Source: Escherichia phage vB_EcoS-733R5
Length of the DNA stretch: 46,651 nt
Sequence record: ON470608.1
Strand: one strand, 5' to 3'
The position numbers were made by a program, and so were the translations under genes. Every line of letters starts with the position of its first letter. Position 1 is the stretch's first letter. Positions 10,366 to 45,217 of the stretch are shown in pieces. Below the pieces are notes generated by a model. That model saw only the letters and a list, made by a program, of their open reading frames with translations. It was not told the DNA's origin and made no database searches.

Positions 10366-13300
10366 TTAAGCGACGTCGCCGGGGTATGTGGCGTCGTCGT
10401 ACTGGTAGAACGATTCGAGGTATTCTTTAGCGGTGACCTGACAGGTTCCGTCAGACTGCGGGGCGATCTCCTCTACAATGGCGTCGTAGACATGGCGCGT
10501 TGAGCCGCAGAACACCAGGCGGATCGGCTCAATGGTTGCCGACGACAGGTCAACCTTCATCGGATCATCAAACTCACTCAGGTGCGGGACTGACAGCTGA
10601 AAATCACCCACCCTGCTTGCCACCATCAGCCCGGATGCAGAGCCATCCTGATAGCGGATCAGCGCTCGAGGGTTTTCGAAAGACCAGTCCAGCGGCTCCG
10701 TAACGGTGAACGTTGTCACGCCACCAGCCGTTGTCATCGCCTCCACCAGACAGGAAATCGTGTTGTTACCCGGAATATCATCCGTGAGCACAATGCGATC
10801 GCCCGTGTTGTAGCACAGCGCGTCCAGCTCTGTAGTGGCCTGGAACGTCACCCGCTGCAGCAGGTATTTCATCAGGCGACGCATGCCGATCTGATAGGCG
10901 TGGTCCTGATTGAGTACCCCATCGAGTTTATAATTCTCGATCTTCACTGGCGTCGGATTGTCCGGCGTCCGGCATTTAACGGTCTCCTCTGCCCAGGTAG
11001 TCCCGTTGATGTACGTCACGTCGACGCCATCAAAATCATCGTCGGACGGTACGGTAAATCCGCTCTGCAGCTCCTCCACCATCTCATGCGGAGTGATCAT
11101 GCCAGTCCAGGGCTTAATCCCCTCACGGTTGACCGTCGCCAGGCCATCACTCAGCAGAAAACGTGACTTCCCGGCATTGGCTATCTTCTGCAGCATTTCC
11201 AGCGCTGAGATACTGTCGCCCGTGGCGAAATCGAAATTTTCGCCCCGTGGCGTCCAGTACGCGGATTCCAGCGCGTTGATGGTGTCGACGTCCATCTCCA
11301 GCCCCAGCGAGTTCCCGACATGCAGCAGCGCCCCCGAAATGGTTCTGGCGGTTCCTGAGTCATAGGCGCGCGTGGCCACAACGTTTACGCGGCGGTCCGA
11401 CTGCGCCGCCAATTTGCCCCCCGTCTCAACGGTCACCGCCATCAGCGACACGCCGGGATAGGATGAAGGGCGCGTCAGCAGTCGCCCGCGCAGTGCCTGC
11501 CAGTACATCGTATCTCTGGCATTATCCTGCCCCTGTTCATTTTTCCGGCGACACCGGACCTCAACGAGGCCTGGTGAAGGCAGAGTGATACGCTCAGTAA
11601 ATCCAAGTCCGTTAATATTTTTTAACTTGTAAAATCCGTCGCGCGTTTCCCATCCTCCCCCTGAGCCGTAAATACGGTATTGAATTACCCAGCCAACCCA
11701 CCACGCTTCTTTCTTGCCCTTCTTGTTGAATCCACAGATACCACTCGGGAAAGAGAAATTTACTTCGAAAGCGTCAATCTTTTCGTTCTCAGGGCAGGCA
11801 AGAAATGGTCCCATCCAGGTATCATTATCGTTTATCCCGGTAGCCTCATAGTCGATCATCGTCCTGGCTATGAATCCCGGCCATGACTCATCAATAACAC
11901 CGTTAACCAGACGCGCCACCGTTGCCGTCGCGCCGTCGGCAGAGGCGATCTGGTATTCATTGCCTCGGTGGGCAAGTGAAAGCCGCTGCACCCCCTCCGG
12001 CATCCCGGAGAATGCGGTGCCCGTGGCGCTGTTATAGGCGAGTGTCACATTCGCCGTTACCGCCGGGCTGCCGCCAGTTGATGCCGTGCCGGAGGTGTAA
12101 ACCGGGGCATCACCGAAAACAGCTGCAGGCAGCGAAGAGGACGTGATCGCCCCACCCGCGAACGGACTGGCCGCCTCTGTTATCAGTACAGTGCCGCCGT
12201 TGTCCTGCGCAACCAGGCCGGATCCGGTGAGTTCCTCGGTGATGGCCGCCAGCAGTCCCGACATCGAGACGTAGTTAGCCACCAGCGACACCGGGTAGGT
12301 AACCCCCTGCCAGGTGATCGTGAACGCGCTGGAGCTGGTCGAAAAATCGTAGGTGGTCGGGGCCGCACTGGCCTGGACTTTTGCCGCACTCCCCCCCGTG
12401 CCGGGCACTGCAACCTGACCGGGGGTATATGACGCGATAAACAGATCGTAATCGACAGAGTTAAACCCCAGCGTCACCGGCATACCTACTACCGGCGCGA
12501 TCTCCGTCAGCAGCGGGCTTGCGATAACGCTGTATCCAGCCGCCGTGGTGATCTGGTAGTTCGCCGGGGCTTTAAGTTCGACCACGGCGCCAGCGACCCA
12601 GCTGGGCGGCAGTGCGTTATCGTTCTCGTCATTATCGTCATCATCATCCGTATCCAGCCCCGTAAACGTCACGCTCGATCCGGAGACGGTCATGCTGTCT
12701 GCGATAATGTCGTCTGCGTCCGGCGACGTCTGGGCCATATCCAGCCCGGTGCCGGATGACGTCCCGCCAACTTCGGTGGAGTTGACCCAGTTTTCGCTGC
12801 GCTCATCACCGGAAACGTCCGCGCCTGGCGGGTAATGGGTGCTGCTAAATCCAGGTAGCGTTGAAGCTGGCGTACTGCCAACCCTGATATCGCCATTGGT
12901 ATAAATCAAATCACCGACACCGAGACACAGCAGCATCTGGACGCGCATTTTCGTAGGATCGGCGGCATCAAACCGGGTAACCGGCTGCACCACATAATCA
13001 GGGTAGATACGCACCCGGCCAAATACCTCACGAATGGCATCACCGAGTTTTGCGCTGTTTGCTTTAGCGGGGTTCAGGTCGAGGCTTCGACCTGTGGATG
13101 ATGTATAGCCGCCGGCATCAATGTTACTCATCATGAACAATGAATAAGCCGCAGATGCGACGGCAATGCCCACTCCTATCCAGGCAATTGTCGCGGCCTC
13201 AAGCCCGAAAGGCACCGGATAAAGCCTGACATCACTATCAGGGCGAATCACACACTTAGCCCACTCGACTGGCGGAATTAACAGCCCCTCAACCTCAACG

Positions 13301-30220: not shown

Positions 30221-30252
30221 AATTGTTAACTATTAGTGTACTAAGGAATGTT

Positions 30253-31194
30253 ATGACGAGTGCAGTTGCGGTAAAAAAACCCAAAAAACTACGAATTGGC
30301 TTCTATACGAGTAGTTCTGGAACCATTCGAAGCAACTCTGTTGCCAAAGCTGCGATCGATAGCCTTTACAGCACTTGCGTGAATGTAACTAACAATCATT
30401 TCGATACTACATATAAAAATAAAAAGTTGAAAATTGCGTTTATAAATAAAGACACTAATGCCAAATATTATTTTGGCTATATGTCTTGCTCAAGAGAAGA
30501 GTACCTCCTTCCTTATATTGGCGATGAGCACTGGAAAGAACACAACATCCCATTGGATGATAAAAAATACATTGTCGAGCGTACTTATTTTTTATATTAC
30601 TATGAAAGCGACATTTTGATCCTTACGCAAAACCATCTTGGTCCAAAGGAATCTGATCTCGCTTATCTTCTTTATAGCCAAAGTGGACAGCCTGGAAACA
30701 ATTTTTCTTTCCAAGCCATTTGGAAGAAAGAAAGTATTAAAGAACTTCTCGAAACAGGAAGTACACTTAGAAGCTGCGAACTTATCCTAGCTGCTCCACG
30801 AAACTTCGATGTGACTAATTATCAGTTAGATAGTTCTTTTTCGAAAGAACTATTAAATATGATGATTGGTCTTGGTGGTACGCATTTAAAAATCAATCTT
30901 AGAGGGAGAGCTTCTGGAAGAGTTAAAGTTAAAGGCTACCTTTCGGATGTGGTAAAAGATGGTATTAAAGAATTATTAGAAAAAATACCGAATATTGTCA
31001 AAAAAGCAGCAGTAACACAGCCAAAAAACACTGCTGAGCAGAGTCTGCTTGAACAGGTTCTCATCTCGGAAAAAAATATACATACCGTAAACGGCTATGG
31101 CACAGATAGCGATGTGCTCCAAGCGATGATTTCTGCTAAAATTGATAATAATGGTTACCTTATGCAGTACGACATAAGCATTAAGAAGGTATAG
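30253..31194 (+). CDS. Cargo protein A: soluble ~313-aa protein (possible RexA-like sensor)
   Basis: AT-rich gene antisense to the late operon; aggaa SD; N-terminal GFYTSSSG; Lys-rich; no confident family assignment. Confidence 0.55.
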   Translation: MTSAVAVKKPKKLRIGFYTSSSGTIRSNSVAKAAIDSLYSTCVNVTNNHFDTTYKNKKLKIAFINKDTNAKYYFGYMSCSREEYLLPYIGDEHWKEHNIPLDDKKYIVERTYFLYYYESDILILTQNHLGPKESDLAYLLYSQSGQPGNNFSFQAIWKKESIKELLETGSTLRSCELILAAPRNFDVTNYQLDSSFSKELLNMMIGLGGTHLKINLRGRASGRVKVKGYLSDVVKDGIKELLEKIPNIVKKAAVTQPKNTAEQSLLEQVLISEKNIHTVNGYGTDSDVLQAMISAKIDNNGYLMQYDISIKKV

Positions 31195-31197
31195 TTT

Positions 31198-31641
31198 ATG
31201 TTATTGAGATATATAGCAAATATAATAGGAAGCATTTTTTTGACATACTTGTTATTGAAGTATGTTCCTTTAATGCAACATAATGACATTCTCACATCAG
31301 CAGGGGTCATCTCTACTGTTTCAGGAATCTTGTTTGGTTTTGTGCTTGCTACTATTTCGATTTTCAGTGCAGCTAGCGCCAATTCAAATGGGGTCTTGAA
31401 AGCTTTAAAAAACAACAACATACTTCAAGGTATAGTAACTAATTTATTAGCTGCTGGAGCGACACTAATTACAGCATGCTTAATTTCACTTATTGCCATG
31501 TTTGCCAGCGAGCAATTAATTTACAATGACAAAAAAATAGAGTTCATATTCATCATTCAATCATTATCACTATTGATAGTAGCAATTATAATGTTTGGGT
31601 TTACTTGGCGTAAAATTAATTGGATTTTACCATATATTTAA
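31198..31641 (+). CDS. Cargo protein B: ~147-aa membrane protein with about four TM helices (possible RexB-like effector)
   Basis: Starts 3 nt after gene A with an aagaagg SD; four hydrophobic segments; followed by a terminator. Confidence 0.55.
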   Translation: MLLRYIANIIGSIFLTYLLLKYVPLMQHNDILTSAGVISTVSGILFGFVLATISIFSAASANSNGVLKALKNNNILQGIVTNLLAAGATLITACLISLIAMFASEQLIYNDKKIEFIFIIQSLSLLIVAIIMFGFTWRKINWILPYI

Positions 31642-31664
31642 AAGGGCGTCCGTGCCCTTTTTTT
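31642..31664 (+). terminator. Rho-independent terminator of the cargo cassette
   Basis: aagggcgtccgtgccc followed by ttttttt immediately after the gene B stop; it abuts the Q stop codon on the opposite strand. Confidence 0.7.
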
Positions 31665-32026
31665 CAATCCATATCTAATCGTACGTCTAACATAGACAAA
31701 CAACCATCTATGAAACCTTCAGCCATCTGTATTTCAATACGTATCAGCTTCTCGTCCTTCTTTCGCGCTTTAGCAATTTTCCGTTTCGAGATACCATATA
31801 GATAATGCGCAACCAACAGCGAATGCTCATAGGGCTTACGTTTTTGAAGACGCGCTAAGCATCCCTCAATAATAAGAGCGTCATCGTCAGTACATGATTG
31901 ACGGGATTTGCTTGTTGGGGGAAGAAGTCCTTTGAAACCAGCGGCTATTGATGAGTAATCGACTCCGGAACTATCATTCGCAGCCCATCCACCCCAACGC
32001 TCTAAAACTATCTGAATATCACGCAT
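31664..32026 (-). CDS. Late-gene antiterminator Q (phage 82 Q-like)
   Basis: MRDIQIVLERWGGWAA...SIAAGFKGLL...LLVAHYLYG...AEGFIDGCLSMLDVRLDMD resembles the phage 82/21-type Q proteins as recalled; ggaga SD; the last gene before the lysis region. Confidence 0.7.
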   Translation of the reverse strand: MRDIQIVLERWGGWAANDSSGVDYSSIAAGFKGLLPPTSKSRQSCTDDDALIIEGCLARLQKRKPYEHSLLVAHYLYGISKRKIAKARKKDEKLIRIEIQMAEGFIDGCLSMLDVRLDMD

Positions 32027-32040
32027 GTTTTCTCCACTGT

Positions 32041-33021
32041 TCATGCTAAGACGCCGATTGCCAGCGCACGATCCAGAAATCGAAACAGCAGCTCCAGCTG
32101 TGAGCCGTGCTTCTCCTCAAATGCCACGGTGTCAGCGTGCAACTCGTCGTGATGCGCTCTGCAAAGCGGCAACACAAACAGGTCATGCGCTTTTGTTCCC
32201 ATTCCACCTTGCCCGTGGCCTATCAGGTGATGGGGATCATCTGCTTGTTTGTTACAGCAGACACACGGCTGGGACTTAACCCAGCGCGTCCAGCTCTCGT
32301 TTACCCAGCGGCGGCGCTTTGGTCGCAGCATGAATGATTCCGGCGTTTCAGGATCTACGCGAAGACCGAGAATCTTTTTCTGCACCACTTCGCTCGCCGC
32401 TGGCTCCGGCACAATATCGCTCTCCTTCATCACCGGCTGATGCTTAATTTCCGGCAATCGCAGGGCTTTTCGGGCCAGCGATTCAGGGATGACGTGCGCC
32501 AGATTGTTTATAACCAGCCACCAGCACAACTCGGGGATCGTCAGTTGATGGTCTTCGTTGAACCCCAGCTGTGAGCGGATGACCGTTATCAGCCAGGATA
32601 CCAGGTTCTCACGCGCAATGCCTGCCAGCGTCTCTGTGTACTGATCACGCACCAGGTTATCGCAGGCCCAGCAAAGGCGGATGCTGCCAGGCTCATGCCG
32701 GAACAACGTAAAATTTTCGCTGTGCCATGAGCCGTGGGGATACTGGCATTCAAAACGACGCTCCAGCTCGGCCTCCAGCGAGCTGATACCACCCGCGCGT
32801 AGAATGACGTCTTTGTTTTCGAAGACTGGCTTCAAAACCGGGTCTTCTGCCAGTGGCTGCGTGGCGGGAGGGATGGCTCCGGTTGCGTAGTCGCTGTATT
32901 TTTCCGGTGCAGGCTCAATCAGTACCCGCCCTCTCCTGAACATCGGCATGAGATCAGCACCTGGGCGAAGAAGAACAACGCCCATGCGTGGGGCAATCTC
33001 AGGGGTTAGTAGTGCTCTCAT
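32041..33021 (-). CDS. HNH-motif protein (DUF968-like) in the nin-region position
   Basis: C-terminal CVCCNKQADDPHHL...LCRAHHDELH, a Cys/His-rich HNH-like motif; located between rusA and Q. Confidence 0.5.
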   Translation of the reverse strand: MRALLTPEIAPRMGVVLLRPGADLMPMFRRGRVLIEPAPEKYSDYATGAIPPATQPLAEDPVLKPVFENKDVILRAGGISSLEAELERRFECQYPHGSWHSENFTLFRHEPGSIRLCWACDNLVRDQYTETLAGIARENLVSWLITVIRSQLGFNEDHQLTIPELCWWLVINNLAHVIPESLARKALRLPEIKHQPVMKESDIVPEPAASEVVQKKILGLRVDPETPESFMLRPKRRRWVNESWTRWVKSQPCVCCNKQADDPHHLIGHGQGGMGTKAHDLFVLPLCRAHHDELHADTVAFEEKHGSQLELLFRFLDRALAIGVLA

Positions 33022-33033
33022 ATCATCTCCACG

Positions 33034-33411
33034 TCAGGCAACTGCACGAAAACGTCGGATGGTGATTTCTACTTTCCCTTTCTTCACGATGTTCCCCCAC
33101 TCCACCAGCATGCGCTTAACCTGACTGTCGTCTTCCCAGACGCCTGTTAGAGTCAGGGCATCGAACAGCGCTTTGTTGTAGTTATCGATATCCCGACGGC
33201 GCTGATCCGGCGGATACAACACTATATGAACCTCAGCCAGATCAGTGGATGGCCGGGGAACGGCCCGCAGTTGCTCAATAATCGCCGCTCTCGCTGCCTG
33301 CTGGAACTTGCGCCCTGTCTCGCTTACCAGATGCCTGCCTTTCAGCGGTCCCTTGCTCGGGGCGCGCCAGTAACTATTTACGCTCGGTGGAAATGGTAAA
33401 GTCAGTTTCAT
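33034..33411 (-). CDS. rusA: Holliday-junction resolvase RusA
   Basis: 125 aa; LPFPPSVNSYWR...RRRDIDNYNKALFDALT matches the RusA motifs as recalled. Confidence 0.8.
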   Translation of the reverse strand: MKLTLPFPPSVNSYWRAPSKGPLKGRHLVSETGRKFQQAARAAIIEQLRAVPRPSTDLAEVHIVLYPPDQRRRDIDNYNKALFDALTLTGVWEDDSQVKRMLVEWGNIVKKGKVEITIRRFRAVA

Positions 33412-33420
33412 TTAGCCCCC

Positions 33421-34230
33421 TTAAAGGATCGCTACAACGTCTTTTGCGACTTCCCGCGTACTGCTTTTGCAGGAGATCGAACGGCGCGCGTTGATGAATT
33501 GCAGGTTAAAACCATGTTCCCGGTACAGGTCGAGAACCTTCGGTGCAGATGAGTTTGAAATTACTACCCGAGCCCCACGGTGAAAGGCAGATACACATTG
33601 CTTCGCCAGGTCTACCTGGTTCTCCCAGTTAAAACCACCAGCGGCGTAGGCGGTGAATCCGGTTGTTCCCGGCATCGGTTCGTAAGGCGGATCGCAGTAA
33701 ACCACATCCCCTTTCCCGGCCAGGCTGATTGTCCGGCGGTAATCAGCGGTCATGAATACGCAGTTATGCGCCATATCCGCGAAGGCTTTCATCTCATCCA
33801 TCGGGTAATACGGGGCCTTGTAGCCTCCCCAGCCCACATTAAACTTGTTCGCCTGGTTGTAGCGCATCAGGCCATTGAAGCAATGCCGGTTGAGATACAG
33901 GAATGCAGCTGCGCGTTCAGTAGCATCCAGCGTCTGAGCGTTGAACTCGGAACGGATCAGTTCATAGCCATCTGGTGACCGCATGTGCTCAAACATCCAG
34001 CGGGCCTTTAATTCCACTTCATCCGGCACCACCGCTAACATCTGATACAGATTAATCAGGTCCGGATTAACGTCCGCCAGCAGGTAATCTGCGTGCTTTT
34101 CGCTGTTCAGGAATACCGACCCACCACCAACGAATGGCTCTATCAGGCGTTTGCCTGCCGGGATATGCACGAACAGGTCAGCCAGCTGGGTATACTTTCC
34201 ACCAGCCCATTTGAGAAATGGCTTGCTCAT
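33421..34230 (-). CDS. DNA adenine methyltransferase (Dam-like, N6-A MTase)
   Basis: FLKWAGGK (SAM binding) and DPPY catalytic motif; 269 aa; no adjacent restriction gene. Confidence 0.85.
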   Translation of the reverse strand: MSKPFLKWAGGKYTQLADLFVHIPAGKRLIEPFVGGGSVFLNSEKHADYLLADVNPDLINLYQMLAVVPDEVELKARWMFEHMRSPDGYELIRSEFNAQTLDATERAAAFLYLNRHCFNGLMRYNQANKFNVGWGGYKAPYYPMDEMKAFADMAHNCVFMTADYRRTISLAGKGDVVYCDPPYEPMPGTTGFTAYAAGGFNWENQVDLAKQCVSAFHRGARVVISNSSAPKVLDLYREHGFNLQFINARRSISCKSSTREVAKDVVAIL

Positions 34231-35210
34231 GTGCGGAACCCCGAGTTTTCTGGCAATGAGTAATCAACCCCGTCGAAACTGGCTCGCGAAATGGACGCCT
34301 CCTGGCGGGAGCTATTGAGTGGAGCAGATAGTTTTAACGACAGCTCATCCCATTTTTCCCGAAGCTTCGACGGGCTGAGTACGTTTTTACACCAGAACGA
34401 ATCTTTGTTGGCGCGCTTAAAAAGTGAGCAAATTTGTTTATGAGTTCTCCCGTCCTGCATCACCATCAGGCGAACCTCATTCGCCCATGCGGTCCAGTTT
34501 GGTTCTTTAGGGCGAACTACCTCTCCATCACTTTCAGCAGCCAGTTCGTACATGCTGATAATTTTTCCCCAAATGAACTCGGCGCAGGTTAAATCGTCCT
34601 GGCTGCCCCACTGCCGCTTTGCAGCGCTGTACACCACCGCGTCAGGATGTCGTGACAGAAATTCATCAGCAGAGCCCTGTTCGTCCGGTTGCGAAGCGTC
34701 CGGACAAGAAGGATTTATATCTGATGGATCAGTAGTTGATTTTACTGACGGATCCCCACCAGATTCTGACGGGTCAAAACTGGTTTTTTTGATGGATTCC
34801 GACGCCTCAAATTTTGAGGGGTCAATTTTTGACGCATCAGATTTTGACGCATCAGATTTTGACGTGTCAGATTTTGACGTGTCAGATTTTGATGTGTCAG
34901 AAACTGACAGGTGAGAAAATGCCGCTTTCTGTAGTTTGGAAACGTTGAGCTGGTAGACGTTCGATGCATTACGGTTGCCGTTGCGGCGCTGTGTGCGAGT
35001 GAGCCACCCCTCTTTCTCAAGTGCAGCTATCGCCGTTCTGACAGTACTTTCACCAGCGCCAATCTGACGGGATATGGTCGCAATAGAAGGCCAGCTAACA
35101 CCCTCATCGTTGCTGAAGTCAGCCAGGCGCGCCATGATTGCCACGCTGGATAGCTTCATCCCCGAAGATGCACAAGCGTCCCAGACGTATCCTGTTAATT
35201 TAGTGCTCAT
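34227..35210 (-). CDS. Replication initiation protein with internal iterons
   Basis: N-terminal winged-helix-like region, central SDTSK pentapeptide repeats encoded by 15-bp DNA repeats, and a C-terminal domain; lambda O-like organisation. Confidence 0.65.
   Translation of the reverse strand: MSTKLTGYVWDACASSGMKLSSVAIMARLADFSNDEGVSWPSIATISRQIGAGESTVRTAIAALEKEGWLTRTQRRNGNRNASNVYQLNVSKLQKAAFSHLSVSDTSKSDTSKSDTSKSDASKSDASKIDPSKFEASESIKKTSFDPSESGGDPSVKSTTDPSDINPSCPDASQPDEQGSADEFLSRHPDAVVYSAAKRQWGSQDDLTCAEFIWGKIISMYELAAESDGEVVRPKEPNWTAWANEVRLMVMQDGRTHKQICSLFKRANKDSFWCKNVLSPSKLREKWDELSLKLSAPLNSSRQEASISRASFDGVDYSLPENSGFRT
34801..34905. repeat. Iteron array (about seven tandem 15-bp repeats, gacgtgtcagatttt-type); candidate ori
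   Basis: Directly visible tandem repeats inside the replication initiator gene. Confidence 0.7.
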
Positions 35211-35219
35211 GATCGTCCT

Positions 35220-35555
35220 TTATTTCTCTGAATTTACGTCTGAATTGCTCGAGGGGGCTAAAGCATTCATGCTCGTACCCTTCACGCAGGTATATAACGC
35301 GCTGTGTCTGGGGCTCCCAGCGTATGACCCTGACCGGGACACCGTAGTGATCTCTGAACCATCGGTTGAGCTCTCGCATACTTTCTCCGCCTGGCCGTTA
35401 AAGTCCCCTACCACCCACTGAGCAAACTGGTAGCAGACAGGCTCGAACCCGCCTGGTACTCTTACCCCATACACGAACTGCACCGGTCCTGCTCCACCAG
35501 GAACTGGCCGCGCTACAAGTTGCGACCTGCGGTATTGTGTTGATAAACTGTTCAT
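35220..35555 (-). CDS. Hypothetical protein
   Basis: 111-aa ORF with a ggaga SD between the cII-like and replication genes; unusual composition. Confidence 0.3.
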   Translation of the reverse strand: MNSLSTQYRRSQLVARPVPGGAGPVQFVYGVRVPGGFEPVCYQFAQWVVGDFNGQAEKVCESSTDGSEITTVSRSGSYAGSPRHSALYTCVKGTSMNALAPSSNSDVNSEK

Positions 35556-35579: not shown

Positions 35580-35628
35580 GACACGCCACGACGCCAGGAG
35601 CTGCAACTCGCTGGCGTCACTTCTTTTT
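35580..35628 (+). ncRNA. Candidate oop-like antisense RNA overlapping the 3' end of the cII-like gene
   Basis: Plus-strand hairpin GACGCCAG...CTGGCGTC followed by acttcttttt, with a possible promoter (ttgata/agtaat) about 50 nt upstream. Confidence 0.35.
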
Positions 35629-36078
35629 GCGTGAAAATAACGTGATAATTGCGGCAATCTCTTCTTCCCGAGCTGCCAGGTGGCGGCGGTGATGCACCAT
35701 GATTTCTTCGGCCTCATGCCTTTCAATAACGCCATCTTCAAGTGCCTGTTCGATAATCTGATCAACCTGCCCCCTGGCGGCAGAGGTACGCATTGCCCGG
35801 CTAAACAAGTCCACTCGGTCCAGTTCTTCCAGGTGCGGAACATCCACCAGCAGAGCACCACGGCGGCGAGCGAAGTAATCAGCCAGTAACGACGTATTGG
35901 AAATGTCCTCCATCGCTTCCAGCTCGCTGACTTCGAAGAAACGACAGCCGTTTTTCTCGTAAAGGTTGTTGTTAAACTGCGTCACCGTCATTCCCAGTGC
36001 GCCAGCCATTGCTTCGCGCCCACCTGGATATGCTTTGCACATCGCTTTGACGGCTTCTTTGAGGTTTGGCTCTACCAT
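35617..36078 (-). CDS. CII-like regulatory protein
   Basis: 153-aa ORF immediately downstream of cro in the early-right operon; the family assignment is tentative. Confidence 0.4.
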   Translation of the reverse strand: MVEPNLKEAVKAMCKAYPGGREAMAGALGMTVTQFNNNLYEKNGCRFFEVSELEAMEDISNTSLLADYFARRRGALLVDVPHLEELDRVDLFSRAMRTSAARGQVDQIIEQALEDGVIERHEAEEIMVHHRRHLAAREEEIAAIITLFSRKKK

Positions 36079-36103: not shown

Positions 36104-36301
36104 TCAAGCAGCTGAATCTGTAGCCTTTTGGTAAAGGCTGGCGTCGTACTTCAGCTTGCCTTTCGTAATTCGTTCGATGACGAATGCTTGTTTTTGAGGG
36201 ATGACTTCACCCCATCGGCAAACTGCCGGGTGGGAAATACCAAGAACACTTGCGGTTTTTGATACGCCTCCGAAGTGTTCGATAACTTCTGATTTACGCA
36301 T
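36104..36301 (-). CDS. Cro-like HTH repressor
   Basis: 65 aa with HTH (VSKTASVLGISHPAVCRW); divergent from the cI-like gene. Confidence 0.7.
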   Translation of the reverse strand: MRKSEVIEHFGGVSKTASVLGISHPAVCRWGEVIPQKQAFVIERITKGKLKYDASLYQKATDSAA

Positions 36302-36330: not shown

Positions 36331-36397
36331 GGTAACAAAAGGTACATTAAATAGCAAACAACAGTTACAAGGATTCCATGTAACATTGGTTACATGA
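36331..36397. promoter_or_regulatory. Immunity operator region (OR-like)
   Basis: A GGTAACAAAAGGTACAT site at 36331..36348 and the perfect palindrome CATGTAACattgGTTACATG at 36378..36397 overlapping the cI start codon. Confidence 0.55.
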
Positions 36398-37053
36398 AAA
36401 CAGAGATGAAAGACCGAATAAGATCCCGTCGAGTCCAGCTCGACATAACACAGCAGACCCTAGCTAAACGCTTGGGGGTAAGCCGTGTTTCCGTAACAAA
36501 ATGGGAGAGCGGCACTACTAAACCTGATGGTGAGAATCTCCATCAGCTGGCGGTGGCGCTGCAGACAACTCCAGAATGGATTCTTTACGGTCGAGGTGAG
36601 GAAACGCCGGATGATACAAAAGTTATTCCGTTCCTTAAGCCACCCACGGCAGTTCCTATTATCTCCGCTGTTCAAGCTGGGATGTGGACTGATACTTATG
36701 CATGCTCAAGGCTTTCTGATGTGATTTCATGGACGCAAACCACTGCAAACGTTTCTAATGAAGCATTCGGACTGGTAGTTCGCGGGGAGTCTATGACTAA
36801 CCCTCATGGTCTGCCATCCATCCCAGAAGGATCGATCGTTATTGTTGAACCGCACTATGGTCAATTGGATGACCTTTACGGAAAAATTGTAGTGGCAATA
36901 CTCGACGGCTCTGCTGAAGCTACCGTTAAAAAGCTGGTATGGGATAGCCCTTTCGCATACTTGATGCCACTTAACCCTGCCTTTAAACCCATCCCGATAG
37001 ATGGTAATTGCCGGATTGTTGGTAAAGTGGTTCAGATTACCCAAAACATTTAA
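36394..37053 (+). CDS. CI-like repressor (HTH-XRE plus S24 LexA-like peptidase domain)
   Basis: N-terminal HTH (QQTLAKRLGVSRVSVTKWESG) and C-terminal S24 domain with Ser (RGESM) and Lys (VKKL). Confidence 0.85.
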   Translation: MKTEMKDRIRSRRVQLDITQQTLAKRLGVSRVSVTKWESGTTKPDGENLHQLAVALQTTPEWILYGRGEETPDDTKVIPFLKPPTAVPIISAVQAGMWTDTYACSRLSDVISWTQTTANVSNEAFGLVVRGESMTNPHGLPSIPEGSIVIVEPHYGQLDDLYGKIVVAILDGSAEATVKKLVWDSPFAYLMPLNPAFKPIPIDGNCRIVGKVVQITQNI

Positions 37054-37156: not shown

Positions 37157-37599
37157 TTAAATCACATCACGAGTACCGGTAGTTACATACTCTGGTGTGG
37201 TAGTGAGCATTACGGCATATGGCACATGTGCCGCAGCGGCCTGAGAATCCCTTTATCCATGCCTCTCAGAACAACCGGAATGTGCAAGCTAAGTGTTCAG
37301 GCACGACGTGCGCCCCACCAGCGCGGAGAAAAGGTGTGACACCTCGGAAGAGACGAGGACACAACCAAAAGAGCGCTGGCATGCAAAAAACATCTCGCAG
37401 CCGTTGCGGTACCAAAAGCCAGGATGGAACGGCAGAACGCGGTAGTGCTCTTTTTGTTGTGTGGAGAACTAACGTACCGCCATTGCAGTGGCGGTCCCCT
37501 ATCAGCAAGAAATTTTTACCAGCTATTCACCCACTCTCATGGGTTGGGTTGCTGCACCCTAAATTTACGCGTTGCAGCGCGTCAGATGGAGAACAAAAG

Positions 37600-37899
37600 A
37601 TGGCTAAGACAGCAAAACAACTGATTAAACAGGCGTACGAAATAGCCAAAACTATGCCACCAGAACAGGCAGCAATCATCAAGGAACTGGCTACCGTCCT
37701 CGATGTTTCGAATGTAGCTCTGCGCCAGACGCGCACCGAACGTGACGACCTTCTCGCAGAGGTCAAATCCTGGGCGAAGGAGTGTGATCGTCTGACCGAG
37801 CGACACACCAAGAAGCGCACAAATCTGCATGTCCTCGAAGCAATGCGCGATTTGAAAGCAATTTGCCCCACCAGCTTCCGTAACGTGGAGGCTCTCTGA
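37600..37899 (+). CDS. Hypothetical early protein
   Basis: 99 aa from the ATG preceded by ggaga; predicted helical; the ORF track extends the frame upstream, but that part looks non-coding. Confidence 0.45.
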   Translation: MAKTAKQLIKQAYEIAKTMPPEQAAIIKELATVLDVSNVALRQTRTERDDLLAEVKSWAKECDRLTERHTKKRTNLHVLEAMRDLKAICPTSFRNVEAL

Positions 37900-38684: not shown

Positions 38685-38815
38685 ATATTGATCCTGAGAA
38701 TTACAGCAAATACACCCTACGTCGGTTCGCCGCCCTGTTAGATGTGATCTGCTGGGTGCTGATTGCCGTAGTAACCGTTGGTATCTGCATGTTTATTGAA
38801 TGGTGGGCAGCATGA
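38681..38815 (+). CDS. Small membrane protein (not in the ORF track)
   Basis: 44 aa with a hydrophobic core (ALLDVICWVLIAVVTVGICMFIEWW); ATGA overlaps on both sides. Confidence 0.35.
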   Translation: MNIDPENYSKYTLRRFAALLDVICWVLIAVVTVGICMFIEWWAA

Positions 38816-39156
38816 GTAAATCACTGAACGCACGTTGCATCCGCCGCTGGGAAGTTGAATTTAAACCATTCTGCGACTCAAAGCGCAATCCGTACTGGCG
38901 CAAGCGTGACCTTCGTGGGTATATCCGCGAAGCGGCGCTTACCACCGCTTACAGCATGGTCGAGAGCATGGCTGAACGTAACGCCAAAGTTGACTTTGAC
39001 GGCTCCCTACAAGGCTGGACTCCTGAGTTCTCAGAATGGTACCGGGAGCGTCGTGAAGTGTATCTCAAAGAAGCCCGCGACCAACTGAATGAAGAAGCTA
39101 CCAACGACGAGATCGACGAAGAAATAGAGAACGAGCTGGAGGCCTGGAATGACTGA
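38812..39156 (+). CDS. Hypothetical phage protein
   Basis: About 114 aa from MSKSL; translationally coupled to its neighbours. Confidence 0.45.
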   Translation: MSKSLNARCIRRWEVEFKPFCDSKRNPYWRKRDLRGYIREAALTTAYSMVESMAERNAKVDFDGSLQGWTPEFSEWYRERREVYLKEARDQLNEEATNDEIDEEIENELEAWND

Positions 39157-39996: not shown

Positions 39997-40857
39997 CTAT
40001 TCTTCCATCCCACCTTCATTTATTAAGCCCTGAGACAACCCATAGGTTGCTAACAGTTCTTTTATACTACCCTTTGTTTTTTGAAAATCCAAAGCAAGCC
40101 TTTCTGCAGACTTTGTATCATTGATCATATTGTTTTCACCAATCAACTCACTCCTAAGCTTATTTAATACATCGGTATAAAAGTAATTGTGCCAATTATA
40201 AATATAAATCTCACCAAATTTATCAAAACCTTCCTTTGAAGCAGGAATCACCTCAATTATTTTTTTGCTTATCTCTCCTTCATTTAGAATGTTGTGTTTT
40301 CTAGCTAAGGGGATTGACAAAAAACGAAGAGATATTAGAGCAAACAAAGATATTGATTCATATATTTCAAAAGATTTAAGTGTGCTTTCACTCAAATATA
40401 ATTTCATAGTATCCTTATCAAAACCATTATACTCTTCTAACTTTTCATTTATTTTTAATGGCCTTGTGATAGCTTCCATAAAGTCATTAAGTCTTTGGTC
40501 ATCTCCCATTTTCATTATCTCTTTGACATTAAGCATCTGCATATATTGCACCGCCATAGATAAACCAATTAGGTATTTACGAATCTTAATTAAATTCTCA
40601 GCTGATTCGAATCTTTTTGACTGGAGAACAGAATCCCTGCTTGTTCTCACATTGGAAAGATAATTCCTTATTTGCTCCAGTTCTTTCTCGCCCTCTCTCA
40701 CTTCAGATTTAAATTTTTCAAGTTTTGTATCAAACTTGTGTTCAATAGATTTTGTAAGAAATTTTCCAATACTATCTCTAAATAAGTAGCCAACTCCAGA
40801 GATAAATGCTGCTGATGTAACGATACTAACAAGCCATTTTAATAATTCGCTATTCAT
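39997..40857 (-). CDS. AT-rich cargo protein with an N-terminal hydrophobic helix
   Basis: 286-aa ORF between the excisionase-like gene and the integrase; Lys/Glu/Ile-rich; no family recognised. Confidence 0.5.
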   Translation of the reverse strand: MNSELLKWLVSIVTSAAFISGVGYLFRDSIGKFLTKSIEHKFDTKLEKFKSEVREGEKELEQIRNYLSNVRTSRDSVLQSKRFESAENLIKIRKYLIGLSMAVQYMQMLNVKEIMKMGDDQRLNDFMEAITRPLKINEKLEEYNGFDKDTMKLYLSESTLKSFEIYESISLFALISLRFLSIPLARKHNILNEGEISKKIIEVIPASKEGFDKFGEIYIYNWHNYFYTDVLNKLRSELIGENNMINDTKSAERLALDFQKTKGSIKELLATYGLSQGLINEGGMEE

Positions 40858-40887: not shown

Positions 40888-42056
40888 TTATCTTAACTTA
40901 TTTACTTGCCAAAATATTTTGTCCGCGTACTTTTCGTATGCTTCCTTCTGCTCCACCAGCCAATCGTGTTTGTTATAAACCGCCATCACTCCCCCTAACT
41001 CATGCCCCAGCATCTTTTCAGTGACGTGAGGCATAACCCCTTCCCCTGATAAATTCGTCACCAGCGAACGCCTGAAGTCATGTGTTCGCCACTCTGGTAT
41101 ATCAATTTTATCCCTTAATTTTTTCATATAGAGATTTGCTGACGAGCGATCTATAGGCTTGTCGAGTTCCTGGCCGGGAAACAGAACATCATTTCCAGCA
41201 TTGAGGAGCCTTTCAACAAAAGGTTTCACCTGGTCAAACACCGGGCGACGGATTACGTTACCCATCTTTGAATGTTCTGCTGGAGTCGTCCAGATAAGAT
41301 CATCCATATTGAACTCACTGGCAGTAGCAAGGCGCAGCTCTGATAGCCTGGCTCCCCAAAGCAAAAGCAGCTGATGAAGCACCTTGTTGGAGGTAACGAT
41401 CTTGTTGTTCTCCAGCGCCAGCCAGATTTTAGCCAACTCGGTATACGTGAGAACACGGCTACCCACATCAGGTTTTTTTCCAATGGTCTTAACACTTAGC
41501 TTCAGGACTTCGCACGATGGGATCAACTGGCGACTGATACACCAGTTCATGACGGAACGTAGCTGCAGAAGAAGCACCCTGGCCTTTTTGCTGTTCTTCT
41601 TTTCCTGCTTATCAAAGAAACGCACCCATGCCGAAACAGGAATGTTTACTACCGGAGCGTCCGGGAATTCTGTGTACATCGTGTTGTACACAACTGACTT
41701 GTACAGCGTCTGAGTGTTCGGCTTCAGCGTTTCAACATACTTGCCCCACCACTGATCCAGGCACTCTTTGAGAGTCAGCTCGCCATCTTCTTTGGCAAAA
41801 TAATTTTTCGGGTTTAGCCCCTTGAGGTACAATTCGCGCATCTCACCGACGACAACGCGCGCCTCCTTGAGAGACATAGCGGGATAGCGGCCAATGGAGA
41901 GGCGAACGGGCTTACCGTTCCAGCGATAACGAAACTGGAATGTGATCGTGCCTGTGGGAGTTATGCGTACACTCAGCCCGTCACCATCTGTGACCTCAGC
42001 TGCGCCGCTGTATGGCTTAGCATTGATGCTACGGAGTTTGGTATCACTAAGGGCCA
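40888..42056 (-). CDS. Tyrosine integrase (P4-like family), likely GTG start
   Basis: N-terminal ALSDTKLR...PYSGAAEVTDGDGLSVRITP and C-terminal HDFRRS...VMAVYNKH are integrase hallmarks; there is no ATG near the conserved N-terminus, so the GTG at 42056 is proposed. Confidence 0.75.
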
Positions 42057-42242
42057 CGGCTCTGTATCCTGTACACACTGAAATTCTGCATTCTGTACTC
42101 AATGTGTACGCAATGGCAAGTGAACGAAGTGATTTTCTAAGCGAATCGATGCGAACGGAAAGGAAATAAAAGGAATGAAATGCTTGATGGTACGGGGAAT
42201 GATAGGATAACATGCAACACAAGCTGAACGCTTAAAAATCAG

Positions 42243-42317
42243 TAAGTTCTATGTCCCCTTAGTTAAATGGATATAACGAGCCCCTCCTAAGGGCTAATTG
42301 CAGGTTCGATTCCTGCA
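42243..42317 (+). tRNA. argW: tRNA-Arg (anticodon CCU)
   Basis: 75-nt cloverleaf-compatible sequence with a GTCCCCT/AGGGGAC acceptor stem, CCU in the anticodon loop, a GTTCGATTC T-loop and a 3' CCA. Confidence 0.9.
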
Positions 42318-42768
42318 GGGGACACCAGATACCCTTCAAACGAAATCTACCTTCACCCCGTAAAAGATGGGTTTGGCAGCACACTTGCCTTATATCTACT
42401 CATTTTTACTGCAACAGGTTGAAATCTCAGCACTGTCAGAAAGCGCTGATGACTAAACAGCCCTGGGCCGGGCGATGTAACCATCACACAGAATCCTGAT
42501 AGCGAAATATGGCGTGACTCGATACTTCACTCCGCAATGCATTCCTTGATGAATTCGCAGGACCGTGATACACGGGACAGGTCACTGAATGACGACAATG
42601 TCCTGGAAATCAGCGAACCGCGCATCTGAAGTACATTTGAGCGACTGTACCAGAACATGAATGAGGCGTTTGGATTAGGCGATTATTAGCAGGGCTAAGC
42701 ATTTTACTATTATTATTTTCCGGTTGAGGGATATAGAGCTATCGACAACAACCGGAAAAAGTTTACGT

Positions 42769-44016
42769 CTATATTGCTGAAGGTACAGGCGTTTCCATAA
42801 CTATTTGCTCGCGTTTTTTACTCAAGAAGAAAATGCCAAATAGCAACATCAGGCAGACAATACCCGAAATTGCGAAGAAAACTGTCTGGTAGCCTGCGTG
42901 GTCAAAGAGTATCCCAGTCGGCGTTGAAAGCAGCACAATCCCAAGCGAACTGGCAATTTGAAAACCAATCAGAAAGATCGTCGACGACAGGCGCTTATCA
43001 AAGTTTGCCACGCTGTATTTGAAGACGGATATGACACAAAGTGGAACCTCAATGGCATGTAACAACTTCACTAATGAAATAATCCAGGGGTTAACGAACA
43101 GCGCGCAGGAAAGGATACGCAACGCCATAATCACAACTCCGATAAGTAATGCATTTTTTGGCCCTACCCGATTCACAAAGAAAGGAATAATCGCCATGCA
43201 CAGCGCTTCGAGTACCACCTGGAATGAGTTGAGATAACCATACAGGCGCGTTCCTACATCGTGTGATTCGAATAAACCTGCATAAAAGACAGGAAAAAGT
43301 TGTTGATCAAAAATGTTATAGAAAGACCACGTCCCCACAATAAATATGACGAAAACCCAGAAGTTTCGATCCTTGAAAACTGCGATAAAATCCTCTTTTT
43401 TTACCCCTCCCGCATCTGCCGCTACGCACTGGTGATCCTTATCTTTAAAACGCATGTTGATCATCATAAATACAGCGCCAAATAGCGAGACCAACCAGAA
43501 GTTGATATGGGGACTGATACTAAAAAATATGCCGGCAAAGAACGCGCCAATAGCATAGCCAAAAGATCCCCAGGCGCGCGCTGTTCCATATTCGAAATGA
43601 AAATTTCGCGCCATTTTTTCGGTGAAGCTATCAAGCAAACCGCATCCCGCCAGATACCCCAAGCCAAAAAATAGCGCCCCCAGAATTAGACCTACAGAAA
43701 AATTGCTTTGCAGTAACGGTTCATAAACGTAAATCATAAACGGTCCGGTCAAGACCAGGATGAAACTCATACACCAGATGAGCGGTTTCTTCAGACCGAG
43801 TTTATCCTGAACGATGCCGTAGAACATCATAAATAGAATGCTGGTAAACTGGTTGACCGAATAAAGTGTACCTAATTCCGTCCCTGTCAACCCTAGATGT
43901 CCTTTCAGCCAAATAGCGTATAACGACCACCACAGCGACCAGGAAATAAAAAAGAGAAATGAGTAACTGGATGCAAAACGATAGTACGCATTTCTGAATG
44001 GAATATTCAGTGCCAT
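42769..44016 (-). CDS. cscB: Sucrose:H+ symporter (LacY-like MFS permease)
   Basis: 415 aa with 12 predicted TM helices; LacY-like N-terminus; adjacent to cscK and cscA. Confidence 0.8.
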   Translation of the reverse strand: MALNIPFRNAYYRFASSYSFLFFISWSLWWSLYAIWLKGHLGLTGTELGTLYSVNQFTSILFMMFYGIVQDKLGLKKPLIWCMSFILVLTGPFMIYVYEPLLQSNFSVGLILGALFFGLGYLAGCGLLDSFTEKMARNFHFEYGTARAWGSFGYAIGAFFAGIFFSISPHINFWLVSLFGAVFMMINMRFKDKDHQCVAADAGGVKKEDFIAVFKDRNFWVFVIFIVGTWSFYNIFDQQLFPVFYAGLFESHDVGTRLYGYLNSFQVVLEALCMAIIPFFVNRVGPKNALLIGVVIMALRILSCALFVNPWIISLVKLLHAIEVPLCVISVFKYSVANFDKRLSSTIFLIGFQIASSLGIVLLSTPTGILFDHAGYQTVFFAISGIVCLMLLFGIFFLSKKREQIVMETPVPSAI

Positions 44017-44087
44017 AATTACCTGCCTGTCGTTAAAAAATTCACGTCCTATTTAGAGATAAGAGCGACTTCGCCGTTTACTTCTCA

Positions 44088-45002
44088 CTATTCCAGTTCT
44101 TGTCGACATGGCAGCGCTGTCATTGCCCCTTTCGCCGTTACTGCAAGCGCTCCGCAACGTTGAGCGAGATCGATAATTCGTCGCATTTCTCTCTCATCTG
44201 TAGATAATCCCGTAGAGGACAGACCTGTGAGTAACCCGGCAACGAACGCATCTCCCGCCCCCGTGCTATCGACACAATTCACAGACATTCCAGCAAAATG
44301 GTGAACTTGTCCTCGATAACAGACCACCACACCTTCTGCACCTTTAGTCACCAACAGCATGGCGATCTCATACTCTTTTGCCAGGGCGCATATATCCCGA
44401 TCGTTCTGTGTTTTTCCACTGATAAGTCGCCATTCTTCTTCCGAGAGCTTGACGACATCCGCCAGTTGTAGCGCCTGCCGCAAACACAAGCGGAGCAAAT
44501 GCTCGTCTTGCCATAGATCTTCACGAATATTAGGATCGAAGCTGACAAAACCTCCGGCATGCCGGATCGCCGTCATCGCAGTAAATGCGCTGGTACGCGA
44601 AGGCTCGGCAGACAACGCAATTGAACAGAGATGTAACCATTCGCCATGTCGCCAGCAGGGCAAGTCTGTCGTCTCTAAAAAAAGATCGGCACTGGGGCGG
44701 ACCATAAACGTAAATGAACGTTCCCCTTGATCGTTCAGATCGACAAGCACCGTGGATGTCCGGTGCCATTCATCTTGCTTCAGATACGTGATATCGACTC
44801 CCTCAGTTAGCAGCGTTCTTTGCATTAACGCACCAAAAGGATCATCCCCCACCCGACCTATAAACCCACTTGTTCCGCCTAATCTGGCGATTCCCACCGC
44901 AACGTTAGCTGGCGCGCCGCCAGGACAAGGCAGTAGGCGCCCGTCTGATTCTGGCAAGAGATCTACGACCGCATCCCCTAAAACCCATACTTTGGCTGAC
45001 AT
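44088..45002 (-). CDS. cscK: Fructokinase (ROK/pfkB-like sugar kinase)
   Basis: 304 aa with VLGDAVVD and GAGDAF sugar-kinase motifs. Confidence 0.8.
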   Translation of the reverse strand: MSAKVWVLGDAVVDLLPESDGRLLPCPGGAPANVAVGIARLGGTSGFIGRVGDDPFGALMQRTLLTEGVDITYLKQDEWHRTSTVLVDLNDQGERSFTFMVRPSADLFLETTDLPCWRHGEWLHLCSIALSAEPSRTSAFTAMTAIRHAGGFVSFDPNIREDLWQDEHLLRLCLRQALQLADVVKLSEEEWRLISGKTQNDRDICALAKEYEIAMLLVTKGAEGVVVCYRGQVHHFAGMSVNCVDSTGAGDAFVAGLLTGLSSTGLSTDEREMRRIIDLAQRCGALAVTAKGAMTALPCRQELE

Positions 45003-45107
45003 TTTTTTCCCTTAAATTCATCTGAGTTACGCATAGTGATAAACCTCTTTTTCGCAAAATCGTCATGGATTTACTAAAACATGCATATTCGATCACAAAA
45101 CGTCATA

Positions 45108-45183
45108 GTTAACGTTAACATTTGTGATATTCATCGCATTTATGAAAGTAAGGGACTTTATTTTTATAAAAGTTAACGTTAAC
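45108..45183. promoter_or_regulatory. Divergent csc promoter region with two GTTAACGTTAAC palindromes (candidate CscR operators)
   Basis: Perfect 12-bp palindromes at 45108..45119 and 45172..45183 in the AT-rich cscK/cscA intergenic region. Confidence 0.5.
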
Positions 45184-45217
45184 AATTCACCAAATTTGCT
45201 TAACCAGGATGATTAAA

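Follow-up and report, generated by a model that had tools for sequence, protein, structure and literature searches.

The initiator gene and the repeats within it

We analysed a DNA stretch of 46,651 bp from Escherichia phage vB_EcoS-733R5 (ON470608.1; this whole stretch is called the window below), which is a prophage with bacterial flanks. The subject of this study is its replication initiator gene, together with a series of 15-bp tandem repeats lying inside the gene. The initiator gene is located on the minus strand at 34227..35210 and, according to the open reading frame (ORF) list, encodes a protein of 327 residues that starts with MSTKLTGYVWD. In the PHROGs search, this protein matched phrog_391 ('replication initiation O-like') at 1e-113. 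The equivalent methionine is the start in all 23 homologues of our alignment (A1). In the deposited record ON470622, the coding sequence named 'DNA replication protein O' (11517..12425) begins 25 codons later than the start of the homologues. This shorter start removes the first helix of the winged-helix domain, and the same record has a hypothetical ORF annotated on the opposite strand at the initiator start. The gene was matched in 1537 of 5426 complete Escherichia coli genomes, mostly partially.

The initiator can be divided into four parts. The N-terminal part (residues 1-98; 34917..35210, minus strand) is a winged-helix DNA-binding domain according to Pfam, an AlphaFold2 (AF2) model and Foldseek. 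The sole Pfam match of the protein is HTH_36 (PF13730) at residues 23-70, with 38.3 bits against a curated cut-off of 25 and an E value of 1.2e-9. This domain was modelled with a predicted local distance difference test score (pLDDT) of 71-87, and Foldseek found it similar to MarR-type dimeric winged-helix proteins on DNA (E about 3e-3); the search with the full model returned only winged-helix proteins, all for this domain. Its recognition helix is approximately S55-T-V-R58-T-A-I61. No Phage_rep_O/TIGR01610 match was found in the N-terminal part of the initiator, whereas phi80 gp15 scored 1.8e-40 with TIGR01610 in the same search. Furthermore, no NCBIfam model covers the initiator family. Residues 103-180 form a linker predicted to be disordered (pLDDT <40 in the AF2 model), and the linker holds the SDTSK/SDASK repeats. 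It is followed by a helical domain (residues 181-296, helical from about 200 in the AF2 model; 34323..34670, minus strand), which was recognised by its homology to lambda O and phi80 gp15. Residues 188-308 share 38% identity with the C-terminal domain of lambda-type O proteins (E 8e-19, tblastn against phage genomes), and the C-terminal part shares 36% identity with phi80 gp15 (2e-26, BLASTP). A sequence search of the Protein Data Bank (PDB) with the C-terminal half returned no match. Finally, a disordered tail (residues 297-327; 34230..34322, minus strand; pLDDT <50) ends with ...FDGVDYSLPENSGFRT. Given this domain layout, the repeats encode part of a disordered linker between the DNA-binding domain and the O-type domain. 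The initial annotation had called this gene a replication initiator, and its O-like nature was borne out by the phrog_391 match and by the C-terminal homology to lambda O and phi80 gp15.

Tandem Repeats Finder detected one array at 34801..34901, with a period of 15, 6.7 copies, 86% matches, no indels, a score of 118 and the consensus GACGCGTCAGATTTT. This is the strongest tandem repeat in the window. The pattern GACGYRTCAGATTTT, with at most two mismatches, occurs five times, always within the array; shuffled sequences gave an expectation of 0.46, and none of 100 shuffles reached five. When the pattern search and the Tandem Repeats Finder result were read together with the codons, the array was seen to comprise eight head-to-tail 15-bp units (34797..34916, minus strand; coding unit TCTGAYRCGTCAAAA; core dyad TGAC-NN-GTCA), of which the five best are at 34827-34901. 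The in-frame units at residues 104-138 include three SDTSK (TCT GAC ACR TCA AAA), two SDASK (TCT GAT GCG TCA AAA), one IDPSK (ATT GAC CCC TCA AAA) and one FEASE (TTT GAG GCG TCG GAA), and a degenerate unit SHLSV (TCTCACCTGTCAGTT, TCT CAC CTG TCA GTT) lies ahead of the others, which makes eight units in register. The whole array thus spans residues 99-138, between the N-terminal and C-terminal domains. The SDTSK units carry the dyad TGAC-NN-GTCA and the SDASK units a weaker TGA-NNNN-TCA. The in-frame SDTSK-type repeats described by the initial annotation were therefore found again by all three approaches, with eight units rather than about seven. In addition, the period of 15 bp is a multiple of three, so adding or dropping units keeps the reading frame.

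The 15-bp unit is absent from the rest of the window at up to two mismatches, a looser motif is absent from 7.5 kb of flanks of the window gene, and Tandem Repeats Finder gave no second repeat array in the early region. The Rfam search revealed no oop-like or other RNA close to the initiator gene. Promoter-like and terminator-like matches inside the array were dismissed as by-products of the repeat.

Reading on in the coding direction, several further elements come into view. A 23-bp palindrome at 34801..34823 (GACGCCTCAAA T TTTGAGGGGTC; repeat search, 91% complementary) is made up of the last two units and includes a TTGACCCCTCAA site of the type used by the Erwinia/Edwardsiella subfamily. 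Next comes a short A/T tract of 18 bp at 34776..34793 (coding strand ATCAAAAAAACCAGTTTT). By inspection only, this tract is recognisable, and it is kept as A6-N5-T4 in relatives of the same unit class (class A, see below), for instance as AAAAAAGCGGGTTTT in SfII and AAAAAAGTGAGTTTT in Pantoea. A single inverted copy of the iteron (plus strand TCTGACGGGTCAAAA), found by the repeat search at 34756..34779, overlaps a palindrome CCACCAGATTCTGACGG. On inspection, this element resembles the inverted repeat of the phi80 origin (TTCGTCCGAGAATTCTGACGAA), which is located past A/T-rich DNA, and its counterpart in Pantoea (L007) is a perfect 15-bp palindrome (CGCCAGAATCTGGCG). Finally, a nearest-neighbour stability scan pointed to a candidate unwinding region of low duplex stability at 34705..34754. 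Of all 45-bp duplexes in coding DNA between 32.0 and 37.2 kb, this region holds the least stable (z 2.7; within the top 2.7% of the window), and it carries two GATC sites (34727-34730 and 34751-34754), which lie within a direct repeat (GATCCGTCAGTA / GATCCATCAGAT). The GATC pair and the direct repeat are present in all 16 diverse initiator genes compared, from Escherichia to Proteus and with any iteron class, and the synonymous positions there are conserved. The invariant GATC pair, together with the dam gene directly after the initiator, suggests that the origin may be under methylation or SeqA control.

Variation of the repeats among relatives

To compare the repeats, we collected 80 loci (one genome per species), 80 relatives from IMG/VR and two relatives by exact protein look-up. 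Exact 9-mer counts in the linkers were too strict to show the arrays, and degenerate motifs were used instead. Every relative with the domain layout of the initiator has a tandem array at the equivalent position, and the unit differs by class. The unit is TCTGAYNCGTCAAAA in class A, which includes the window, SfII, Pantoea and Providencia, and TTGACCCC(T/C)CAA in class B, which includes Erwinia, Edwardsiella and Morganella. Class C consists of three loci (L021, L170 and L169) with the unit TCTGAACGT(T/C)CA, and in a Haemophilus relative the unit is 21 bp long and includes GTTCAAATTCTGAAC.

The unit classes go together with the recognition helix of the N-terminal domain. In 21 genes, four helix classes correspond to four site classes, and no site class crosses into other helix classes; the sole blurring consists of one or two class B-like or class C-like sites in three class A genes (those of the window, L007 and L032). 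For example, the helix STV-R-TAI pairs with TGAC-NN-GTCA, and the helix TTVSAAI pairs with the class B site containing TTGACCCCTCAA. The helix STV-I-T pairs with TGAA-CG-T(T/C)CA, that is, one half-site has A in place of C and the other has T in place of G. Such a symmetric change is as expected for a dimer that reads the dyad with residue 58. Meanwhile, the site motifs are nearly absent from the flanks (about 6 kb for each locus), with one class A match across all scanned flanks.

The class B arrays contain one 12-mer in both orientations, TTGACCCC(T/C)CAA and its reverse complement TTGAGGGGT(C/T)AA, which encode IDPSN/IDPPT and VEGST/VEGLT, respectively. Thus, this arrangement is not explicable as a peptide repeat. 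In Providencia, the peptide is altered to SVPSK/PDVSE and the DNA unit TCTGNNNCNTCAAAA is retained. Furthermore, TCA accounts for 142 of the 314 serine codons in the linkers, compared with 55 of 330 in the remainder of these genes (Fisher 3e-15). Close relatives have three to seven units and differ in length by steps of 15 bp only, and none of the 80 IMG/VR relatives has fewer than three clear units. Across the protein clusters, the number of units ranges from none to nine, with alleles of few or no units being rare. Because the dyad shifts with the recognition helix, both orientations occur and synonymous positions are constrained, these sequence comparisons support the view that the repeats act as DNA sites rather than as a peptide motif.

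We proposed that the array very probably represents the initiator-binding iterons of a lambda-type origin located inside the prophage's own initiator gene. The initial annotation had likewise suggested a lambda O-like arrangement with the origin within the initiator, and the position of the sites, their dyads, the covariation with the helix and the parallel in phi80 gave this suggestion computational support.

Gene neighbourhood, helicase loading and the initiator tail

The initiator gene is preceded by a cro gene (36104..36301, minus strand; P22_Cro 3.2e-23) and a cII-like gene (35617..36078, minus strand; Pfam Phage_CP76 3.4e-15), and the cI gene is divergent (36394..37053, plus strand; Peptidase_S24 plus HTH_3). 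The cII-like and cro genes upstream therefore place the initiator in a lambdoid early-right operon. Between the cII-like gene and the initiator there are a 111-aa ORF (35220..35555, minus strand; phrog_1170, 6e-35) and a small DUF4222 gene (59 aa; 35200..35379, minus strand; Pfam 7.9e-19), the latter overlapping the initiator start by 11 nt. These two ORFs overlap in different frames within 35200-35555, and both have strong family matches. In Proteus and Providencia, the N-terminal half of the 111-aa ORF and DUF4222 are two separate adjacent small genes, so the 111-aa ORF of the window may be an extended or overlapping form. Which member of this pair is annotated differs between RefSeq and GenBank.

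Downstream of the initiator there is a gene for a Dam-type N6-adenine methyltransferase (33421..34230, minus strand; Pfam MethyltransfD12, D12 class, 2.6e-51), whose start overlaps the initiator stop codon. In lambda, this position is held by gene P. It is followed by rusA (33034..33411, minus strand; Pfam 5.6e-16), a DUF968/HNH gene (32041..33021, minus strand) and Q (31664..32044, minus strand). A tblastn search with four P proteins, E. coli DnaC and a phage DnaC-like protein found nothing in the 46.6-kb window, and neither Pfam nor the deposited annotation showed a helicase there. The earlier observation that dam and rusA, and no helicase or loader gene, come after the initiator was thus supported. 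Meanwhile, the early-left genes encode a ParB-like protein, a dATP/dGTP pyrophosphohydrolase, an Xis-like helix-turn-helix protein, an integrase and three proteins of 114-286 aa without a family (37381-37899, 38812-39156 and 39997-40857). PADLOC gave no match for the family-less neighbouring genes.

With P, DnaC-like and helicase genes all missing from the phage, host DnaB would have to be recruited by the initiator itself, and loading likely proceeds via the C-terminal part of the initiator and host factors. We therefore compared the ends of the initiators. Tail classes were assigned from the last 15-30 residues at the 80 genome loci and set against the gene that follows; three misfiled loci were reassigned by hand. 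A tail of the type WN(S/T)xEAWExxL was followed in 18 of 18 cases by a Phage_lambda_P gene overlapping the stop codon. The NTDW tail, which is that of lambda and phi80, went with a P gene in 12 of 12 cases, and so did other tails (4/4). For the ...IPxGFRG tail, there was no loader in 13 cases, a DnaC-like gene in two and a remote P fragment in one. No loader was found with the long tail of Providencia/Proteus (19/19). Hence, the tail type predicts the presence of a P gene across the 80 loci, and GFRG tails never adjoin an intact P gene. This correlation agrees with the suggestion of the initial annotation that loading may depend on the C-terminal domain of its initiator and on host factors. 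In alignment A1, the tail of the window initiator (...VDYSLPENSGFRT) falls opposite the GFRG-type tails of relatives (...VDYSQIPAGFRG), and that of SfII ends with ...SQIPAGFRG.

The GFRG tails of relatives match the C-terminus of E. coli DnaT (...RDVNTVSEPDSQIPPGFRG) with E values of 3e-7 to 4e-8. For instance, the tail RCVNHISEPDTEIPPGFRG of L035 matched DnaT at 3e-7, and that of L044 showed 50% identity over 32 residues (4e-8). The full motif RDxNxxSxPDxxIPxGFRG is present in four relatives (L035, L039, L043 and L044). Among 17 DnaT orthologues (71-87% identity), R161, D162, S167, D170, I173, P174, G176, F177, R178 and G179 are invariant, and the phage GFRG tails retain these very positions. 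Neither BLASTP with the whole protein nor hhalign with its C-terminal domain was significant against DnaT, and only the tails of relatives match. When the last 40 residues of DnaT were searched against phage genomes, the initiators of SPN1S-like Salmonella phages were found, as were Shiga toxin (Stx)-type phages in which a GFRG-tail initiator is followed by a DnaC-like loader. Where a loader lies alongside a GFRG tail, it is DnaC-like (L031, L039 and phage POCJ13), and in the host dnaT adjoins dnaC. A previous study reported that lambda O is inactive after loss of its last five residues (PMC6022878).

The correlation between tail and loader and the matches to DnaT suggest that the tail is a portable peptide specifying a partner, with the GFRG version going with a DnaC-type loader or the primosome. 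We tentatively proposed, as a possibility about which we are still rather doubtful, that the tail of O-type initiators is a swappable address label which sets the route of helicase loading, and that the GFRG version mimics DnaT. Under this proposal, the Trp-rich tails would couple to phage P, and the IPxGFRG tail would engage host DnaB-DnaC or PriA/PriB directly.

In addition, the O-type initiators of Providencia, Proteus and Morganella (L016-L023, L034, L045-L059 and L064) have an extra C-terminal extension of about 70 residues ending with ...RKAWAGIWQQAAEQAA. As P was absent in all 19 of the 19 cases, this extension may be a second, different way of working without P. Meanwhile, DUF4222 and phrog_1170 were considered as stand-ins for P and rejected, because they occur with GFRG-, lambda- and Providencia-type tails alike.

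Other observations concern the remainder of the window. Two plus-strand genes at 30223-31641, located between Q and the lysis genes, encode a DUF6731 protein (323 aa) and a hydrophobic-looking protein of 147 aa. This pair looks like a moron or accessory cassette and had no PADLOC match. At 5925-6150 (minus strand), Rfam detected a group II intron D1-D4-6 domain (184 bits, E 4e-54), and it adjoins an ORF at about 4334-5818 (minus strand) annotated as 'retron-type RNA-directed DNA polymerase'. The ORF and the adjoining domain are more likely a group II intron with its maturase/reverse transcriptase, inserted near the tail-fibre end of the prophage. Finally, the window includes host DNA at 42253-46651, with tRNA-Arg(CCT) (42253-42324) and, beyond it, sucrose utilisation genes; the record is titled a phage 'partial genome'. 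The tRNA-Arg(CCT) gene adjoins the integrase gene (40888-42213) and is likely the attachment site.

Interpretation and comparison with known origins

On the basis of the above results, the following mechanism can be pictured. Dimers of the N-terminal domain would bind the eight head-to-tail sites and build an O-some-like complex, and transcription from the early-right promoter would run through the origin. The DNA would then open in the GATC-bearing stretch of low stability at 34705-34754. Host DnaB would be brought in by the initiator, whose C-terminal domain and DnaT-like tail would act on host DnaB-DnaC or on the PriA/PriB/DnaT primosome. The SDTSK/SDASK peptides would be a tolerated by-product, since the linker would need only to stay hydrophilic and flexible.

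Some observations weigh against these interpretations. No strongly AT-rich block adjoins the array, and the minimum GC content in 60-bp windows (0.38) lies inside the array itself. By instability, the candidate unwinding stretch ranks no higher than the top 2.7% of the window, and it is far less AT-rich than that of lambda. Thus, for the AT-rich unwinding element that the initial annotation had put forward as a check, the strongly AT-rich block was missing, and what we found instead was the 18-bp A/T tract and a moderately unstable stretch at 34705-34749. The head-to-tail spacing of 15 bp corresponds to about 1.4 helical turns, compared with about 21-24 bp in lambda and phi80, and therefore the architecture of the complex may differ. 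Three homologues (P0009, P0038 and P0005) are almost without repeats, which could mean that the array is dispensable, or these may be defective prophages. As for the tail, the DnaT-like motif is at its most degenerate in the window initiator (SLPENSGFRT), and the initiator's C-terminal domain did not match that of DnaT (PF17948 / NF002770) significantly in either profile or fold comparisons. Moreover, the DnaT tail has been described as having a modest effect on the binding of single-stranded DNA (PMC4132743) and is not discussed in another study (PMC13377028).

Other explanations should also be considered. The repeats could simply be a low-complexity peptide linker produced by slippage and kept at the protein level as a flexible or phosphorylatable Ser/Asp/Lys spacer, with no function of the DNA. 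Such a linker would agree with the predicted disorder (pLDDT <40), with the hydrophilic residues of the repeats and with a copy number that ranges from about 0 to 9 in the homologues, as is usual for repeats prone to slippage. However, it does not account for one DNA 12-mer used in both orientations with different peptides in class B, or for a dyad core that is retained when the peptides vary (SDTSK, SVPSK, PDVSE, SERSK and PETER) and that covaries symmetrically with the recognition helix. The skew of serine codons to TCA and the inverted iteron copy adjoining the array point in the same direction, and the annotated gp15-binding sites of phi80 are likewise in-frame. We consider this explanation very improbable. 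A different possibility is that the units are real initiator sites serving autoregulation, copy-number control (handcuffing) or exclusion of related phages, with unwinding and loading taking place elsewhere. Plasmid iteron arrays also act in control, there is no strong AT-rich element adjoining the array, and rare alleles lack the array. Nevertheless, the site of the array, between the two domains, is that of the origins in lambda, phi80 and Stx phages, and a conserved A/T tract, palindrome and GATC pair stand directly after the array. Furthermore, no other repeat array was found in the early region, and neither the unit (elsewhere in the window) nor its looser motif (in the 7.5-kb flanks) was found. 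A purely regulatory role is thus improbable in our view.

It may also be that the origin is correctly placed and that the loader is an unrecognised phage protein, such as one of the early-left hypothetical proteins, the DUF968/HNH protein or the product of a small upstream gene. Several early genes have no family assignment, the tail of the window initiator is degenerate, and the link between tail and loader is a correlation only, all of which leave room for such a protein. However, the genes after GFRG-tail initiators vary (PerC-like, ParB-like, DUF977, DUF1627, Dam and KilA-N) and offer no candidate common to all, DUF4222 is found upstream with several tail types, and the loaders that do accompany a GFRG tail are DnaC-like (L031, L039 and POCJ13), which mirrors the dnaT-dnaC operon of the host. 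We regard a hidden loader as rather unlikely.

The origin reading, which we prefer, can be compared with several known systems. In lambdoid phages, the origin is made up of iterons and an AT-rich tract that lie midway along gene O; lambda has four of these iterons and Stx phages have six (PMC7466680). The initiator gene of the window resembles that of lambda in its place in the early-right operon, past cro and cII, and in its C-terminal domain (38% identity). In both, dyad iterons are located within the gene at the junction of the two domains, A/T-rich DNA and an inverted repeat come next, and the origin is read as a hydrophilic linker. However, lambda has four sites of about 19 bp with spacers rather than eight contiguous 15-bp units, a Phage_rep_O/TIGR01610 N-terminal domain rather than HTH_36, and a much stronger A/T tract. 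Lambda also has a P gene and the tail ...NTDWIYGVDL, whereas the window phage has no P and a GFRG-type tail. In phi80, four annotated gp15-binding sites lie in the equivalent place of gene 15 as in-frame repeats (FPKTGKS, FPKSGIT and FPKT), with A/T-rich DNA and a related palindrome past the sites, and the C-terminal domain is 36% identical. Some relatives of the window initiator are named 'Replication protein 15' in their source records. Nevertheless, phi80 differs in its lambda-type N-terminal domain, its site spacing of 21 bp, its NTDW tail and its P homologue gp14. The Stx phages 933W and P27 show that the iteron number varies between phages, which parallels the copy-number variation found here; they differ in having a lambda-type O and a P gene, and iteron binding and requirement were tested experimentally there.

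In Shigella phage SfII, the initiator SfII_41 ('O protein family protein') is 70% identical over the full length. SfII also has the GFRG tail, no P, the same gene order (cII, small gene, initiator, dam, rusA, DUF968 and Q) and four units of TCTGACCCGTCAAAA, and it differs in the smaller number of units and in a PerC-like gene between the initiator and dam. In the literature, we found no description of the SfII origin. SfII was isolated as a phage (PMC3772137), and so the layout without P works. In P22 and phage L, repeats within gene 18 have been read as the origin (PMC8022706). However, the gene 18 initiators are unrelated or distant and are paired with a phage DnaB-type helicase (gene 12). 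Finally, the initiator of Salmonella phage SPN1S (L167, 2308-3123) carries the whole C-terminal domain of DnaT (63% identity over 94 aa, DnaT 86-179, 3e-41). Like the window phage, SPN1S has no loader gene, and a domain of the host restart primosome is fused to its phage initiator. The window initiator shares only the degenerate tail with DnaT, and the folded part of its C-terminus is a domain of lambda O type.

Taken together, the comparison places the array with the well-known in-gene lambdoid origins, here seemingly in a domain-shuffled O-like initiator that works without P. It differs from the known kind in that the N-terminal domain is HTH_36, the units are contiguous with a spacing of 15 bp, the A/T tract is weak and a P gene is missing. 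This variant is common in the databases, and we found no characterisation of it in the literature, nor anything on DnaT-like phage initiators, initiator-only modules or iterons of the lambdoid replication protein O. A 2006 review of phage replication modules by Weigel and Seitz reportedly classifies initiator-only modules.

If the proposal on the tail is true, phages like the window phage, SfII and SPN1S need no loader gene, and a function would be given to the DnaT tail. The recruitment of DnaB-DnaC by DnaT or by P-less initiators has been described as unknown (PMC13377028, PMC4132743), and the phage initiators would provide a simple and testable system for this question. Furthermore, the exchange of Arg58 and Ile with a symmetric C-to-A change in both half-sites represents a clean natural change of the recognition code. 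The iterons also indicate where the origin of this prophage family probably lies, which helps in annotation and in building origin-based vectors. In addition, knowing the likely site of the origin helps to understand replication-based exclusion among the prophages of E. coli, Klebsiella and Shigella.

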